Assembly: GCA_022710715.1 (NCBI GenBank)
Contig: JAKLGJ010000001.1
Span: 554,041 to 618,040 of the forward strand
DNA length: 64,000 bases
Source of the DNA: Candidatus Omnitrophota bacterium
Lineage (GTDB): Bacteria > Omnitrophota > Gorgyraeia > Gygaellales > Profunditerraquicolaceae
Direction of reading: 5' to 3'
Both the position numbers and the translations under genes were made by a program. The notes beneath the pieces are model-generated. The model saw only the letters and a list, made by a program, of their open reading frames with translations, was not told the origin of the DNA and ran no database searches. Positions 3,524 to 11,990 of the stretch are shown here, one piece after another. Within the stretch, counting starts at the first letter, position 1. Each line of letters starts with the position of its first letter.

Positions 3524-3890
3524 CTCTCAAGGCAAGTAGCGTAAGCCGAGTTCTGTCTGGAGTGGTTATTCCTCTCGACCCCGGGGTTACCCGCCGGGGC
3601 TTTAGCAGCCTACCCGAAACTGATAACGGGACGAGCCATCCCATCGTTTCCTATTCGGCCTTGCTCCGCGTAGAGATTGCGACGTTTCACTTCGGCCGGG
3701 GACGTTCCCCAAGGTACCACCCCTGGTACAGGGGTGGTACCTTGGGGAACGTCCCCGACTTATTCGTCTCTGTAGCTCTGATCCTCGCAGAAAACTCTGC
3801 GGGCAGGATGTTATCCGCTACGCTGCTCTCTGGAGCTCGGACTTTCCTCCCCGTTCGCACGGGGCAACCACTGCTACTTACCTTTGAGAA
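3524..3890 (-). ncRNA. rnpB: RNase P RNA, bacterial type A
   Basis: Reverse complement contains GGAGGAAAGUCCGAGCUCC (P4 5' strand), GGAGCAAGGCCGAAUAGG, GGGUAGGCUGCU and ACAGAACUCGGCUUA (P4 3' strand). These match the E. coli M1 RNA conserved blocks in the same order. P1 is formed by GGUAAGUAGC / GCUACUUGCC. Ends are approximate to a few nt. Confidence 0.8.
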
Positions 3891-4285
3891 CGTTCTGTGA
3901 CTGCGCGCGTTGCCAGTTTATCCGCTCCGGCGTTCTCTTCCCGGGGGATATGGCAAACCGAAACATGTTTGAAGCCGGATATCAGCCGCGTTGCCTGCTC
4001 GAAGAGTCCGCGTATATGCTCGCTTTTGACCTTGTACTGGCGGTTGAGCTGCCGGCAGAGCAATTCGCTGTCGCTCTTGATGGTCAGCTGTTCAGCCTTG
4101 AGCAGCAGACTTTCCTCCAGCGCGGCGATTAATGCCGAATATTCGGCGATATTGTTCGTGGCGGTGCCGATGTACCGTGAGATCGTGCGTATCGATTGGC
4201 CGTCTTTAAGAATTATCACGCCTATACCGCTGGGCCCGGGATTTCCTTTCGAGGCTCCATCGATATAAATGTCGAGCTTATTCAT
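3878..4285 (-). CDS. rnhA: ribonuclease HI
   Basis: 135 aa, MNKLDIYIDGASKGNPGPSGIGVII...NNIAEYSALIAALE... RNase H fold. The last ~4 codons overlap the rnpB P1 5' strand. Confidence 0.8.
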   Translation of the reverse strand: MNKLDIYIDGASKGNPGPSGIGVIILKDGQSIRTISRYIGTATNNIAEYSALIAALEESLLLKAEQLTIKSDSELLCRQLNRQYKVKSEHIRGLFEQATRLISGFKHVSVCHIPREENAGADKLATRAVTERSQR

Positions 4286-6945: not shown

Positions 6946-7287
6946 CTATTGGAAGGAAGGAAGCTCTACTTTGATCTTACCTTGTTCTTCGGGGTTGGAA
7001 ACGACATAGCTGATACTGGAATTCAAATAGGATGACCATTTGTCATTTCGCCCCCTGCGCAGCGGGCCTAACGCGGATTTATCCTGATCGAGACGTTCAT
7101 TCGTTTTGTTGAAAACCATCGAGCGGTAATACACCTGTCCGATAGTCAGGCTGTGCAGGAACGCATTATTCCGGGCGGCAGCCTTAATGTCGTATTCCAG
7201 CAAAGCCGAGACGTTGGTGATAGACATGAAGAATGCCGTGAGCAGCGAAATAATGATGATGAGAGCACTGACTACCAGTCCGAACAT
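6946..7287 (-). CDS. small membrane-anchored protein, last gene of the pseudopilin cluster
   Basis: 113 aa with an N-terminal hydrophobic helix (FGLVVSALIIIISLLTAFF) but no G-F-T-L-I-E prepilin motif. 3-nt gap to the upstream prepilin-like gene. Confidence 0.5.
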   Translation of the reverse strand: MFGLVVSALIIIISLLTAFFMSITNVSALLEYDIKAAARNNAFLHSLTIGQVYYRSMVFNKTNERLDQDKSALGPLRRGRNDKWSSYLNSSISYVVSNPEEQGKIKVELPSFQ

Positions 7288-7290
7288 GGA

Positions 7291-7956
7291 TTACCGCCTT
7301 TTAACGACGTCGATGAACCAGAACCTGACTCCCTGGATCTTTTCCACCGTGGAAGAAACCCCGAACAGATTCTTGCGTTTGCTGTGAGTGGTTACATGCA
7401 CTTTAAAGAAATTCGGGCTCATCGGTTCCTCGGAACTGCCATCGACGGCAGGGGTGAACCGGAAAACGACATCCGCCTGGTATTTTCCTTCGATCAGGAC
7501 TCGTTCGGTGCCGGTATCGACGTTCCGGATCATCAGTGCGCCGCGCAGACCGTCCGGGCATCTCTGGCCTGACGGGCATTTGATGTAATATTCATACCAG
7601 ATATCGTCGCTATTCTCCTCGGGGGTTATGTTGAAGATGTTGCCCTGTCCGCGGAATTTGAAGTTATGCAGCTCTTCCGGTTCGTAACCCGAGAAACTGG
7701 TTTCGTTGTCGATCTCCACCGCGCTGGTGCAACGCAGACTGATGTCCTGCAAGGTGTTGCTGATCTGGGTATGCATGTTAAAACGTTCCATATACAAGCT
7801 TACCTGATGCGCGGTGTGCATGGTCATCCAGTAGATCGCCATGGCGACGGACGGCAGCAGGATCAGCGCGATGAGCATTTCGATCAGACTGAAAGCTTTA
7901 GCCGCTTTTTTACTGCGCGGCCCCGGTTGTGAAAGTCGTTTCTTCTCGTCGATCAT
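7291..7956 (-). CDS. prepilin-type N-terminal cleavage/methylation domain protein (minor pilin / pseudopilin-like)
   Basis: 221 aa. A 21-aa basic leader is followed by AFSLIEMLIALILL, a type IV pilin class III signal with Ala rather than Gly at -1 and Glu at +5. Confidence 0.65.
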   Translation of the reverse strand: MIDEKKRLSQPGPRSKKAAKAFSLIEMLIALILLPSVAMAIYWMTMHTAHQVSLYMERFNMHTQISNTLQDISLRCTSAVEIDNETSFSGYEPEELHNFKFRGQGNIFNITPEENSDDIWYEYYIKCPSGQRCPDGLRGALMIRNVDTGTERVLIEGKYQADVVFRFTPAVDGSSEEPMSPNFFKVHVTTHSKRKNLFGVSSTVEKIQGVRFWFIDVVKRR

Positions 7957-7957
7957 G

Positions 7958-8851
7958 TCAGCGGCTTGCCTCGGTGGCGAAAACGGTCATATCGAGATCC
8001 CGCAGGTAAAAGGTGTTTTTTTCACCGTGCCTGAACCAGCGCAGCTCTATGGTATGCTTCTGTTCCGGCTTGACGTTGGGAATAGTGATCTTCTGGCAGT
8101 TGATGGGCTGCGATTGTATCGGGGCCCATCCGCCGTATTCGGTCAGCCCGTAAGGGACTTCGTCGAACAAAAGCAGCGTATGAATCGCATCCGTGGGAGG
8201 TATGCCCTCCAGCGCTTCCGGATAAACGGAAACGCAATAATACACCTGAATGTCTTTTTCCACCGCGTATTCGACTTCGATCTTGCTGCGGGGAACAACA
8301 TGTTGCCAGCCGGGATGCCGGGGGTACTGGTACTCCGTCATCGGATCATCCGAAGCGGGGTAGTTAGCGACCTTGCAGGCGGCCGAAGGCGGGTACGGAC
8401 AGTGATAACTCTGCCGGCTTAGATGCACTTCAGGATAGGGATACATGGCGGTCAGGCGTAACGCGCGCTGGCCGGGGCTCTGCCCTTCCATGGCAACCCG
8501 GTCGTACCAGGCAGTCACGGTGATATTCTTATAGGGGATCTTGCGAAAATCGGGAGTATTCTTTCCCTGCAGCATCCGGGTCTCTTCGGGTGACACGGAA
8601 ATATTCCAGAAAGTTTTCAACCCGTCGATCCAGGACTGTTCCCCTGTTTCATTGCGCACGTAATCATACCCTCGCGCCAGAGTGCGTTCCATCTGGGTCT
8701 GCGCAACGCTCATGGCCCGGGAATCCAGTTCTTTGTTCTTGAGCATCTGAAAGCCGCCGCTCAAAGATACCACGATGATCCCGGAGATGATCACGGTGAT
8801 CACCACGGTTACCAGGAGTTCCACGTAGGTAAGACCCGTTCTGGTTCGCAT
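7958..8851 (-). CDS. prepilin-type N-terminal cleavage/methylation domain protein (pseudopilin-like, PilW/GspK-sized)
   Basis: 297 aa. MRTRTG|LTYVELLVTVVITVII has Gly at -1, Glu at +5 and a hydrophobic helix. The gene ends 1 nt before the next start. Confidence 0.7.
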   Translation of the reverse strand: MRTRTGLTYVELLVTVVITVIISGIIVVSLSGGFQMLKNKELDSRAMSVAQTQMERTLARGYDYVRNETGEQSWIDGLKTFWNISVSPEETRMLQGKNTPDFRKIPYKNITVTAWYDRVAMEGQSPGQRALRLTAMYPYPEVHLSRQSYHCPYPPSAACKVANYPASDDPMTEYQYPRHPGWQHVVPRSKIEVEYAVEKDIQVYYCVSVYPEALEGIPPTDAIHTLLLFDEVPYGLTEYGGWAPIQSQPINCQKITIPNVKPEQKHTIELRWFRHGEKNTFYLRDLDMTVFATEASR

Positions 8852-8852
8852 A

Positions 8853-9683
8853 TTAGAGTTCTCGGTCCAGCGGCATAAGGGTAATGGTCATCTGCCGGCT
8901 GTTGGCCGGGCTGAAGACCGTCAGCGGCGAATCGTTTTTCCAGTAGATCTCGATAATCAGGCTTGCGGGAAGTTCGCCGTTGTAATCATCGGGCATGATC
9001 AATGCGCTGCCCGTCATTACCGGTTCGCAGGGCGGAGAAGGCGGCGGAGGCGGCGTAGATACATGGGTCCTTTCCTCTCCCGGCGGCATCGAAATCTTGG
9101 CTTCTCCCTTTGGGTTCTTCATATCGGAGTTGACGATACAGCGGGAAATCACCGAATATCCCTCGGGAAAAGCCTGGATCGACGTGCCGTACCAGGCCCC
9201 TTCGCAGAGTTTATTCTCGATCTCCATCGCCGCCGGAGAATTGCCGAATACCTCCATTGTCCAGGTTACGATGACCTTGGCTGTTTTGCGGTATTCTTTA
9301 GGGATAGCAAGCTTATATTTGAATTCTTCCACCGGCACGAAATCCGCTTCCGATTCTTGAGCGGCTTTGCCGGAAAATTTGCTCTTGAGATGGATCGGCG
9401 CAAGGCTCAACCCGTCCGTGGCCGTGCCGTTTTCGACTTTTCCTTCGTGTTTGGCAGCGAGGTATTCCTCGCATTCAGGCTGTGTTCCGGCCTCAAAACT
9501 TTTGAAATGAGGATAACGCGCTTCGTCAAGTTCGATCCGGGATTTACCGGTGATCTCCTTGACCTGCGGGGTAAGATTTGCGGTCATTTGAGCGGTATCC
9601 TTGGCCAGGGCCGTCCCGCTTACGAGCAACCACAACGATAAGAACACACCGACTCCCACTGCGCTTCTGTTCGATTGTTTCAT
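8853..9683 (-). CDS. secreted hypothetical protein (signal peptide; PPPPPSPP linker)
   Basis: 276 aa. Signal peptide MKQSNRSAVGVGVFLSLWLLVSGTALA. No recognisable domain. Tightly linked within the pseudopilin cluster. Confidence 0.55.
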   Translation of the reverse strand: MKQSNRSAVGVGVFLSLWLLVSGTALAKDTAQMTANLTPQVKEITGKSRIELDEARYPHFKSFEAGTQPECEEYLAAKHEGKVENGTATDGLSLAPIHLKSKFSGKAAQESEADFVPVEEFKYKLAIPKEYRKTAKVIVTWTMEVFGNSPAAMEIENKLCEGAWYGTSIQAFPEGYSVISRCIVNSDMKNPKGEAKISMPPGEERTHVSTPPPPPSPPCEPVMTGSALIMPDDYNGELPASLIIEIYWKNDSPLTVFSPANSRQMTITLMPLDREL

Positions 9684-9695
9684 TGTTTCCTCCTT

Positions 9696-11054
9696 TTATT
9701 CCTTGCCGGATGGAGTGACGTCATGCCGCTGGGCACGGTAAATTTTCAATTCGACGCCCTTCAACCATACCGATAATTCGGCTTTCTTCTGGTCATCGTC
9801 GAACATGGGAATGAAATAGCAGAGTTCGACAGTATATGTTTTGAACGGCTCAAGTCCGCCGTTTTCGGGTTTCTCGTCGAAATAAGCCGCAGCTTCGATA
9901 GAGCAGTTGCCCCGGAAGGAACGCTGATGATGCGAGCTGTAAGCCTTGGTCTGGCCGCTGGGATCGATGATCCTGACCATCGAGAAGAATTGCGGCGGGT
10001 CTATGGACGGATTATCTTCGGCATACGTGCTGACCGGGGTGATGGTTTCCACGTTGATCGACCAGATCACGCCGATAGCTTCGTTTTCGCGGGCGCTGAA
10101 CATGAATTTCATGCTTTTACCGGCCGGAAAACCGTCAATATCGTCGATGGGCAGATAGTCTTTATCCGTCAAGCCCAGGATCCACTGGGTGTAGGCTTCT
10201 TCCACAAGCTTGCACTCTTCCGGGCTGGGTGCTGTCCGGCACGGGCTGTTCGCGCTTACCAGTGTATCGCAGGCAGATTCTTTGCAGGGAGGATTGCTGC
10301 CGGTAAACAGCGGTTCCCGGCAGCAGTTATAATCGCGCACGCATTTTTCCCATCCTTTTACGTCGCTGGAGCAGCGCGCGGCGCAGGATTTGAAATCGAC
10401 GGTCGGCACGTATTTGTAGCAGAAGTTCGGAGAGTTGTTGCATTTCGCTCTGTCGGCCTGCTGGGAATCGTCGTAAAATTCGATACTTCTGGAACAACTG
10501 CGGATATCCGGGTTGTTCGGCGTGCAGAACCGCCTGGGGGCGTATCCTCTGCGGTCGCAATACCAGATCGTGGAATCGGAGGGATCGACTTTGCAATCGC
10601 CCTCCGGTTGAAAAGCCGGGCAGCCATCCTCGTAACAGTTGAACTGGCCGCCGCTGCAGGCGGGATTGCAATTATCGTTTACGTCGATAGGCGAACATTC
10701 GCTGGGACGGAAAGGTATCTGTTTGGGCGTGCAGTCAAAAGAGTAACATTTTTTGTGCGGCGTGCCGGCGCTGTCGTATTCCAGGCAGGTGTCTTCCGGA
10801 CACCGGAGGCGCAATTCGTTGCATTTCCTGCAGGCTTTCCTTTTCACGAGTATCTCGGAGCCGGCAAAATCCGAATCCTGCAGCTGTAAATGCAAACCGC
10901 GGGCTACAGCGGAATTGATCGCGAAATCCTTGGGAAGATAATTGATCACGCGTTTGCCGCTATCTTCCGCGGTTCCGGCTAACGGCAAAAAAAAGACCAT
11001 GGCCACAGCAAGGCACATGGTGAAAATAACCGGTTGAGTGCGCAATTGTCCCAT
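9696..11054 (-). CDS. cysteine-rich secreted protein (putative adhesin / filament-tip protein), novel
   Basis: 452 aa. Signal peptide, then a roughly 230-aa region with about 45 Cys in irregular CxC / CxxC / Cx(n)C spacing, then a Cys-poor ~150-aa C-terminal domain. I recognise no catalytic motif. Confidence 0.6.
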   Translation of the reverse strand: MGQLRTQPVIFTMCLAVAMVFFLPLAGTAEDSGKRVINYLPKDFAINSAVARGLHLQLQDSDFAGSEILVKRKACRKCNELRLRCPEDTCLEYDSAGTPHKKCYSFDCTPKQIPFRPSECSPIDVNDNCNPACSGGQFNCYEDGCPAFQPEGDCKVDPSDSTIWYCDRRGYAPRRFCTPNNPDIRSCSRSIEFYDDSQQADRAKCNNSPNFCYKYVPTVDFKSCAARCSSDVKGWEKCVRDYNCCREPLFTGSNPPCKESACDTLVSANSPCRTAPSPEECKLVEEAYTQWILGLTDKDYLPIDDIDGFPAGKSMKFMFSARENEAIGVIWSINVETITPVSTYAEDNPSIDPPQFFSMVRIIDPSGQTKAYSSHHQRSFRGNCSIEAAAYFDEKPENGGLEPFKTYTVELCYFIPMFDDDQKKAELSVWLKGVELKIYRAQRHDVTPSGKE

Positions 11055-11103
11055 ACTGAAAATATAGCATATTTTTCAGTAATTACAACAAAAAGTCGCG
11101 AAA

Positions 11104-11484
11104 TCAATACCCTTTAAGGGTTTCTTTGCGTACGTGATAGTTGATGGTATCGCAGAGATTTTTCCGGTCGCGTTCCTCTATTTCCTGAAATGCCACTCTG
11201 GTTTCATAGATAGAATCCGGAGTGACTTCCTGGCAGGCAAGCACCCTGCCTTTCACAAACACCGGTTGGGCGGTTATGGGAAGACGGATGTGCAAACCGA
11301 AAGCCGTGTCAGGTTCATACGGCCTGCTGGTGGTAAAACGGATCCCGCCCATTCCTATATCCCGGGTCTGGGAAACGTCGGTAATAACGAACTGGGTATT
11401 CTCAACCATTCCGTAGGAAACCAGAAAACGGGCATGGGCGCGGGGAAAGCTGCGTTTATCGGTGTGGGAAGTCTGTTGCTCCAT
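11104..11484 (-). CDS. PilZ-like c-di-GMP receptor domain protein
   Basis: 126 aa. Contains RSFPR (RxxxR) and, about 25 aa later, DIGMGGIRF (a D-x-S/G-x-G-G variant) in the spacing typical of PilZ domains. Confidence 0.55.
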   Translation of the reverse strand: MEQQTSHTDKRSFPRAHARFLVSYGMVENTQFVITDVSQTRDIGMGGIRFTTSRPYEPDTAFGLHIRLPITAQPVFVKGRVLACQEVTPDSIYETRVAFQEIEERDRKNLCDTINYHVRKETLKGY

Positions 11485-11507: not shown

Positions 11508-11990
11508 CTAATTCTGCGAATAATACCTGTTGATGGTTTTGACTATTTCCTTGTTCGTGGCGATAAAAGGCATAACGTTCAGATCGGAAAAATACCGCAA
11601 TTCTTCGAATGCGCGGTGATTGAGAGGATTAGCCGCTGCCACCGTCAGATTCCGGCCGTATACATCGACCGGCATCAGGTGATATTTCCGGCAGAACCAT
11701 TCCGGCACCAGCGCCACAACGTCGGGATTCAGCTGATAATGCTCTAACGGCAGGTACGGAACGCTGTACTGCGCGGTAAACGCCTGGATAATATCTTCTT
11801 CACTGGCCAGTTCAAGGCTCAACAGGATCTCGCCGAAAAAGTTATGGCCGTTCTGCGACAGTTCACCGCTGATCGCCAGGACCTTCTCCAGCTGAACCTC
11901 GTTGAGGATCCCCCGTTCCAGCAGGATCTCGCCCATGCGTTTCGCGGTAAGACGTTTCTTGAGATGGATCGGATGATCGGGTTTAACCAT
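11508..11990 (-). CDS. stand-alone GspE/MshE N-terminal (MshEN-like) domain protein with c-di-GMP-binding motifs
   Basis: 160 aa after moving the start to MVKPDHP... (ATG at 11990, RBS GAGGAG). RMGEILLERGILNEVQLEKVLAISGELSQ fits the MshEN motif R(L/M)GxxLLxxGxLxxxQLxxAL..Q. A second degenerate copy is FFGEILLSLELASEEDIIQAFTAQ. There is no ATPase domain. Confidence 0.65.
   Translation of the reverse strand: MVKPDHPIHLKKRLTAKRMGEILLERGILNEVQLEKVLAISGELSQNGHNFFGEILLSLELASEEDIIQAFTAQYSVPYLPLEHYQLNPDVVALVPEWFCRKYHLMPVDVYGRNLTVAAANPLNHRAFEELRYFSDLNVMPFIATNKEIVKTINRYYSQN

Follow-up and report, generated by a model that had tools for sequence, protein, structure and literature searches.

We report here that a stretch of 64,000 nucleotides from the genome of a Candidatus Omnitrophota bacterium (contig JAKLGJ010000001.1 of assembly GCA_022710715.1, positions 554,041 to 618,040 of the forward strand; hereafter the window) carries the gene for a Cys-rich secreted protein of 452 amino acids (aa) that belongs to a very narrow, phylum-restricted and previously unannotated family, and that the genes of this family stand in strict synteny with pilin-like genes (Table 1). 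We propose, by analogy with known systems, that the Cys-rich protein might act, like PilY1 and MshQ, as a non-pilin adhesin at the tip, or in the priming, of a type IV filament specific to Omnitrophota, a reading that we regard as evenly poised, and that it may serve attachment to a host or to prey. The gene neighbourhood is the strongest evidence. The functional analogy with PilY1 is drawn from this strict pilin synteny together with a Sec signal, a head of the receptor-binding type and three diverged cassettes in one genome.

Gene order

Approximately 10 distinct cassettes were found, three of them in one genome. Their order is a pilin of 132-171 aa, the Cys-rich protein (431-475 aa), one or two partner genes and then pilin-like genes, of which the first encodes 272-363 aa and the second 182-221 aa, followed at the end by a membrane-anchored protein of 101-113 aa. 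Family members always lie beside two to four prepilin-like genes, and homologues of the partner, a 276-aa orphan protein in the window, are found directly downstream of the Cys-rich members in every locus with enough DNA. Every cassette that extends over those positions has orthologues of the 297-aa and 221-aa pilin-like proteins of the window, and orthologues of the small protein, at 101-113 aa, occur in seven further cassette loci. The association also holds in reverse: among the loci retrieved via the partner alone, all eight with enough upstream DNA have a Cys-rich gene directly upstream (about three lineages).

The best family match, P0002, is a paralogue approximately 25 kb away on the same contig, and next to it the partner, the two pilin-like proteins and the small protein all have homologues (BLASTP expectation values (E) 3e-14 to 4e-37). 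A third paralogue, P0041, from the same metagenome-assembled genome (MAG), has the same neighbours plus two small canonical pilins. A neighbouring protein and the two paralogues are named Candidatus Omnitrophota bacterium at NCBI (locus tags P5110_*, GCA_035453765.1). The genome thus holds three diverged copies of the cassette, those of the window protein, P0002 and P0041; the two besides that of the window protein lie at L008 10001-14124 and L095 6573-12322.

The initial annotation had placed the gene in a pilus cluster, which agrees with what we find: two prepilin-type open reading frames (ORFs) lie directly downstream, with the partner gene in between, and genes for MshEN- and PilZ-domain proteins lie upstream. 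From 12095 to 5449 every gene is encoded on the minus strand, and neighbouring genes are 0-49 bp apart, except for approximately 295 bp before the gene for the 400-aa protein, which is probably the last of the operon. MshEN is the domain of MshE/PilB-type ATPases that binds cyclic di-guanosine monophosphate (c-di-GMP), and in the window cassette the MshEN and PilZ genes occupy the position of the small pilin. Among the pilin-like proteins of the cassettes there are GFTLIE-type motifs and matches to pilin alpha-1 helices in PDB, and one pilin near a cassette matches T2SSG (E 1.7e-4). Both prepilin-like neighbours in the window carry a class III signal peptide with a hydrophobic alpha-1 helix, and the profile of the 297-aa family matches the N-terminal helices of type IV pilins in PDB (E 1e-4). 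The globular parts of the pilin-like families match nothing, known pilins being matched in the N-terminal helix alone, and the small 113-aa protein has no match in PDB.

Table 1. Features of the window and of one paralogous locus (arrow, signal peptide cleavage site).
Feature	Position	Strand	Basis and remarks
Cys-rich secreted protein, 452 aa	9696..11054	minus	ORF list; stop codon 9696-9698
Its Sec-type signal peptide, ~residues 1-28	10971..11054	minus	read from sequence
Its conserved post-signal motif VINYLPKD; family pattern [IVL]x[YF][LIF]Px[DN]	10926..10949	minus	family alignment
Its Cys-rich domain, residues 75-281, 26 Cys, non-repetitive	10212..10832	minus	Cys positions, alignment
Its C-terminal beta-sandwich (jelly-roll) domain in the model, ~residues 300-442, with the most conserved motifs of the family	9729..10157	minus	AlphaFold2, Foldseek
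Promoter-like site upstream of the MshEN gene	12100-12072		
MshEN-domain protein, stand-alone, 160 aa in public call	11508..11990	minus	Pfam MshEN E 2.2e-20; longest ORF reaches 12095
PilZ-domain protein (c-di-GMP receptor type)	11104..11484	minus	Pfam PilZ E 2.8e-8; 49 bp upstream of the Cys-rich gene
Partner, secreted orphan protein, 276 aa	8853..9683	minus	plain Sec signal; no Pfam match
Pilin-like protein, 297 aa, prepilin N-terminus G↓LTYVELLV	7958..8851	minus	motif scan
Pilin-like protein, 221 aa, KA↓FSLIEMLIAL	7291..7956	minus	Pfam N_methyl, TIGR02532, motif scan
113-aa protein, N-terminal hydrophobic helix, no prepilin cleavage motif, last conserved cassette gene	6946..7287	minus	alignment
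Secreted low-complexity protein, 400 aa	5449..6651	minus	ORF; no homologue in other cassette loci
Strong terminator-like hairpin after the 400-aa gene	5374-5355		
RNase P RNA, class A	3525-3884	minus	170 bits
PilT-like T2SSE ATPase, 348 aa	29078-30124	minus	18 kb from cassette
Large orphan proteins flanking the L008 cassette	L008 6718-9738, 3588-6401, 15092-18334		

The gene, its signal peptide and its family

The ORF is a real gene, since the identical protein is among the gene calls of 12 public metagenome contigs, including one of 1.6 Mb, and since a variant of 95% identity differs by 21 substitutions, none of them at a Cys. The extent of the ORF in the initial annotation was exact, and the signal peptide noted there is of the Sec type cleaved by signal peptidase I (Sec/SPI), with the n-region MGQLRTQ, a hydrophobic core at approximately residues 8-25 and the cleavage region GTA↓ED. 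The AlphaFold2 model described below agrees with a helix at residues 10-22, and in the family alignment each of the 20 full-length relatives begins with a comparable hydrophobic segment. Neither a lipobox nor a twin-arginine motif nor a prepilin GFxxxE motif was found at the N-terminus by reading the sequence and by motif scan, and the combination of a class III signal peptide (G/A↓F-x-x-x-E) with a hydrophobic alpha-1 helix is lacking in this protein. The signal peptide and the gene context suggest an extracellular location.

A word-indexed search of 5.8 billion proteins with the Cys-rich protein returned the 95% variant alone, to which a profile added one more protein. The family came to light just by an exhaustive scan with HMMER over 1.84 billion cluster representatives, which gave 27 proteins at E≤1e-3, of which nine were at E≤1e-10. 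Most members have 420-475 aa, align over their full length and are 23-31% identical, even when they are paralogues within one genome, and every named member is from Candidatus Omnitrophota. The genome contigs of the GTDB representatives, a set from which the species is absent, gave no match. Conserved in the family are the pattern CxxC...CPDCC near the beginning of the Cys-rich region and the C-terminal motifs Y.FVARS.E, WQI, FYTMVK, HQKSF and LYYF.P.

With regard to known families, the Cys-rich protein had no match in Pfam, NCBIfam or PHROG, and the last of these likewise gave none for the partner and three relatives. NCBIfam returned no known Cys-rich repeat or adhesin family for the protein or for nine proteins neighbouring it, and PDB had no match to the family either by single sequence or by family profile. 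In Pfam nothing meaningful was found for any of the 27 members, and no match of the EGF, TNFR, TSP1 or VWA type at E≤1. This is in agreement with the initial annotation, in which the Cys spacing was judged not to fit EGF, TNFR or thrombospondin repeats. A match to a known repeat family such as VWA or laminin-EGF, which would have made the protein ordinary, was sought in Pfam, NCBIfam and PDB, and none was found. The statement that the protein has no recognizable domain stands for sequence searches, but the model of the C-terminal part resembles a TNF/C1q-like jelly-roll.

A promoter-like sequence, TTGTAA-16-TATATT, is present at window positions 11061-11088 (minus strand) and ends 7 nucleotides before the ATG, with no Shine-Dalgarno sequence visible, so the transcript may have a very short leader or be leaderless. 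Matches to the promoter consensus around these positions are no commoner than in shuffled sequence.

Cysteine content and pairing

The protein has 29 Cys, not the approximately 45 first estimated: C14 belongs to the signal peptide, residues 75-281 account for 26, and C384 and C412 fall in the C-terminal domain, which is thus Cys-poor rather than Cys-free as had been thought. The four Cys motifs first quoted, CRKCNELRLRC (75-85), CYSFDC (103-108), CNPACSGGQFNC (129-140) and CYEDGC (140-145), are all present. The Cys-rich stretch of 207 aa is 12.6% Cys, compared with a mean of 1.25% in the other 67 long ORFs of the window; against this background, the binomial probability for 26 or more Cys among 207 aa comes to approximately 3e-18. 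The protein is the most Cys-rich of all the ORFs in the window.

Twenty Cys columns of the family alignment are invariant across all 20 full-length members, and the variable ones are gained and lost in pairs, with counts that are inflated by the relatedness of the members: columns 88/513 (both Cys in 17 members, neither in 3, none discordant), 127/412 (18, 2 and 0), 495/510 (11, 9 and 0), 221/421 (4, 16 and 0) and 320/384 (15, 4 and 1). For at least two of them, unrelated members have lost the pair independently, and the window protein is without three of the five. The loss of Cys in twos is a pattern like that of disulfides and not of a four-ligand metal site, and it supports the presence of disulfides, which the first description of a disulfide-bearing module implied. 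Two of the covarying pairs span approximately 200-240 positions, and no internal repeats were detected in the domain, the hhalign probability between its thirds being 0.1-0.4%. The long-range pairs and the lack of internal repeats indicate that the region forms a single integrated domain rather than a row of modules of the EGF or TNFR kind.

Predicted structure

An AlphaFold2 (AF2) model was built with the 27-sequence family alignment and has a mean predicted local distance difference test score (pLDDT) of 80.3 and a predicted template modelling score of 0.64; the run on the single sequence was uninformative (pLDDT 38). Residues 27-40, which include the conserved post-signal motif, are below pLDDT 50. 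The model continues with a long strand (44-59), a helix (66-84) and a Cys-rich stretch of short strands, and has further helices at 219-245, 259-266 and 278-293. Between 316 and 442 there are approximately nine strands, mostly at pLDDT 82-94, in keeping with the beta-rich C-terminal domain noted at the outset. Most family members terminate exactly at ...R-x-R-E, which is the last jelly-roll strand; the 10-residue tail that follows in the window protein is not conserved in the family. The model has no Rossmann-like alpha/beta domain, the fold of VWA.

Foldseek searches of PDB and BFVD matched the model solely to beta-sandwich/jelly-roll proteins, including the TNF-like lectin PLTL, the lambda gpJ tail tip, receptor-binding proteins of staphylococcal and lactococcal phages and ExsFA, and in addition giant-virus collagen-like proteins and a phage protein with a C1q domain (E 1e-4 to 1e-6, 8-14% identity). 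The TNF and C1q profiles PF00229 and PF00386 did not match the family members. As modelled, the C-terminal domain resembles a TNF/C1q-like jelly-roll. Such heads usually bind cell-surface ligands, and those of Photorhabdus PLTL, Bacillus ExsFA/BclA and phage tail-tip or receptor-binding proteins have a beta-sandwich similar to that modelled for the C-terminal ~140 residues; the likeness is at the level of the fold alone.

The partner as a diverged copy of this C-terminal domain was rejected at an hhalign probability of 0.4%. A paralogue of the partner (L008 13273-14124) has a weak match to Pfam BclA_C, which is C1q/TNF-like (E 0.26), and the partner might also be a jelly-roll. Proline-rich inserts (PPPPPSPP, PPPPPPDPKDPPPAKP) were seen at window positions 8853-9683, at L008 13273-14124 and at residues ~190-215 of P0002; they are found just in the partner proteins of this genome and in the paralogue P0002, and not in relatives from other genomes.

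Comparison with known tip proteins

It is documented that Omnitrophota commonly encode type IVa pili, and they are believed to be predators or parasites that live attached to larger cells (PMC10066038). PilC/PilY1 are non-pilins exported by Sec with an SPI signal (bioRxiv 10.64898/2026.09.18.752573), and their last 10-12 residues add a beta-strand to PilK of the minor-pilin tip complex (PMC13533445; bioRxiv 10.64898/2026.09.18.752573). PilY1 has a priming role besides that in adhesion (PMC7541494, PMC13533445), and Myxococcus has several sets of minor pilins and PilY1 per genome (PMC7541494, PMC8833165). The Cys-rich protein is like PilC/PilY1 of Neisseria, Pseudomonas and Myxococcus in being a non-pilin with a Sec/SPI signal and a two-domain build, in being encoded with prepilin-like proteins, where PilC/PilY1 have minor pilins, and in the presence of several paralogous sets in one genome, comparable to the sets of PilY1 and minor pilins in Myxococcus. 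In contrast, it shares no sequence similarity with them and lacks their beta-propeller (IPR008707/PF05567), in place of which the model has a jelly-roll; at 452 aa it is less than half the size of PilC/PilY1 (~1000-1500 aa); and it is Cys-rich and paired with a second orphan gene, that of the partner. It is not a member of the PilY1 family.

A precedent for tip proteins that are not homologous to PilY1 is MshQ of the Vibrio MSHA pilus, a large protein unrelated to PilY1 and encoded beside pilIJK homologues, which was proposed from modelling as a tip subunit (PMC13533445). MshQ is predicted to dock in the same manner as PilC/PilY1, and modelling may reveal further tip subunits (PMC13533445; bioRxiv 10.64898/2026.09.18.752573). 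No homology to MshQ was detected, and that protein differs in its ~1200 residues and in its predicted docking by the extreme C-terminus.

Among type IVb pili, CofJ and TcpF are small Sec-exported proteins encoded in the pilus operon which bind the tip pilins CofB and TcpB via a short N-terminal peptide. In the family studied here there is likewise a conserved motif near the N-terminus, unstructured in the model, whereas the pilus class is a different one and there is no sequence similarity.

Proposed function and alternative explanations

In the mechanism that we propose, the protein would be exported by Sec, after which many disulfides would lock the Cys-rich domain of approximately 200 residues, which would carry the TNF/C1q-like jelly-roll at its C-terminal side. 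Together with the partner family (276 aa), it would associate with the co-encoded 297-, 221- and 113-aa proteins in a pilus priming or tip complex and would serve as the adhesive head, as PilY1/PilC or MshQ would in type IVa and MSHA pili. We infer the location at the pilus tip and the adhesive role in this way; docking via the conserved unstructured N-terminal motif or via the conserved C-terminal strand of the partner is speculation. The three divergent cassette copies in one small genome would provide alternative tips, and the upstream MshEN and PilZ genes would bring the window copy under the control of c-di-GMP. Such control is weakly hinted at by these two genes together with the GGDEF/HD-GYP genes near three other cassettes.

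Several observations weigh against this proposal. Firstly, the Foldseek template modelling scores relative to the matched proteins are weak, at 0.35-0.54, and the residues covered are not visible in the matches. Secondly, the gene stands before the pilin-like genes, unlike the usual pilI-J-K-Y1 synteny; the family is without the disordered C-terminal plug of PilC/PilY1, its last strand being folded into the jelly-roll at high pLDDT; and the window cassette lacks the small upstream pilin that most others have. Assignment of the pilin-like neighbours as GspH/I/J/K, PilV/W/X or PilI/J/K was attempted and is not possible, because their N-terminal helices alone match. Thirdly, a check of the parity and periodicity of the Cys, suggested in the initial annotation, gave a divided answer: the mature protein has an even number (28), but an even count is found in just 7 of the 20 full-length relatives and an odd one in 13, and no periodicity was found. 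Even parity holds for this protein but fails across the family and was dropped as proof of disulfides, and the odd counts imply that not all Cys are in intramolecular disulfides, some being free, intermolecular or otherwise used. Finally, no Dsb-type oxidase was found within the DNA examined, and the organism is from anaerobic digesters.

Among the alternatives, it is possible that the cassettes encode a pseudopilus like that of a type II secretion system (T2SS), with the Cys-rich protein and its partner as its cargo, secreted for instance as a toxin, a lectin or a lytic factor against host or prey, rather than as tip parts. A plain Sec signal is present in both proteins, the small pilins resemble GspG/PilA, as in the T2SSG match mentioned above, and no docking plug is evident in the family; moreover, CofJ and TcpF are known as secreted proteins that ride on type IV filaments. 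However, T2SS cargo genes are seldom locked in strict order between pseudopilin genes across distant lineages, it would be unusual for a T2SS to have, in a small genome, three separate pilin sets that each serve a cargo of their own, and Pfam and NCBIfam detected no enzymatic or toxin domain, so we consider cargo an unlikely explanation.

The same strict co-encoding with pilin-like genes and the same Sec signal would also be expected of a periplasmic or outer-membrane factor for the assembly, alignment or gating of the pilus machine, one that is not displayed as an adhesin, and PilY1 itself primes besides adhering (PMC7541494, PMC13533445). This role seems to us quite improbable, since the fast divergence of the family, which reaches 23-31% identity between paralogues of the same genome, and its duplication along with the pilins fit surface recognition better, and since the jelly-roll resembles receptor-binding heads.

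Binding of a metal (Zn, Fe or Fe-S) by the Cys, for redox reactions and electron transfer or for metal capture linked to conductive pili in an anaerobe, is very doubtful. The anaerobic habitat, the CxxC and CPDCC motifs and the odd Cys count in 13 of 20 members are in its favour, as is the prediction of conductive pilins in some Omnitrophota (PMC10066038), but the Cys columns are lost in twos and not in fours, CxxCH haem motifs are absent from the protein, no member matches a ferredoxin, a cytochrome or a Zn-ribbon, and the signal is of the Sec and not the twin-arginine (Tat) type, so that a fold loaded with its cofactor would not be exported. That the family belongs, in diverged form, to one of the known families of Cys-rich repeats or adhesins (EGF/laminin-EGF, TNFR, TSP1 or VWA), for which the high Cys density is the sole support, is hardly credible, given that Pfam (E≤1, all 27 members), NCBIfam, PHROG and PDB gave no match, that internal repeats are lacking and that the long model helices at 66-84, 219-245 and 278-293 do not fit.

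Genomic context and related loci

The window is ordinary chromosome, with rpoB/C, a ribosomal-protein operon, EF-Tu, EF-G, rpoD, dnaG and groEL as well as genes of the tricarboxylic acid (TCA) cycle, RNase P RNA and tRNAs. Its RpoB is 75-82% identical to that of Candidatus Omnitrophota MAGs, with none closer among the GTDB representatives, and the organism comes from metagenome samples of the anaerobic-digester type. An origin of the Cys-rich gene in a phage, plasmid or other mobile element was ruled out because tblastn against phages and plasmids gave no match. A 112-aa ORF at 3562-3900 (plus strand) overlaps the RNase P RNA and is spurious, and the PilT-like ATPase gene is surrounded by genes of the TCA cycle, those for aconitase and for the dehydrogenases of isocitrate and malate.

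At other loci, a gene for a GAF-HD-GYP or GGDEF response regulator adjoins three cassettes (L007 1467-2759, L095 15047-15428 and L096 8882-8953). In two lineages (L011 1346-1504, L095 6258-6422), gltX is separated from the cassette by a conserved lipoprotein-like ORF of 52-54 aa (...KKADAWLQ(D/E)NLW). At L008 the partner gene has the opposite orientation and follows the cassette; the large orphan proteins flanking it have 1006 aa with a match to Phage_T4_Gp30_7 (E 2e-8), 937 aa with TPR, and 1080 aa with no match. As these three neighbours show no Neisseria_PilC domain, a PilY1 near this paralogous cassette was rejected, and a PilY1-type domain was found in none of the neighbours examined.

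Significance

Omnitrophota are ultrasmall and, apart from one enrichment, uncultured. Candidates for the recognition of partners or prey have so far been giant ORFs and generic type IV pili (PMC10066038). What is new here is a family that is restricted to one phylum and lacks annotation, within a pilin cassette that is conserved and just as unannotated. The oxidation of a heavily Cys-rich exported protein is itself a question in an anaerobe. The retention of PilY1/PilC at the tip has only just been worked out, and a tip protein that is unrelated to PilY1 and lacks its plug would, if true, be a second solution. Extending the proposal, we suggest tentatively, and with distinctly less confidence than for the tip or priming role itself, that Omnitrophota may have replaced PilY1 with a two-protein tip of their own, formed by a disulfide-stapled protein bearing a TNF/C1q-like head and by its obligatory partner, possibly as a hetero-oligomeric head, and that several interchangeable, fast-diverging cassettes per genome would set the host, prey or surface that the cell can grasp, the window copy being under c-di-GMP control via MshEN and PilZ. 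The family provides candidates for recognition proteins that are small and tractable, and one genome has three variants of them.

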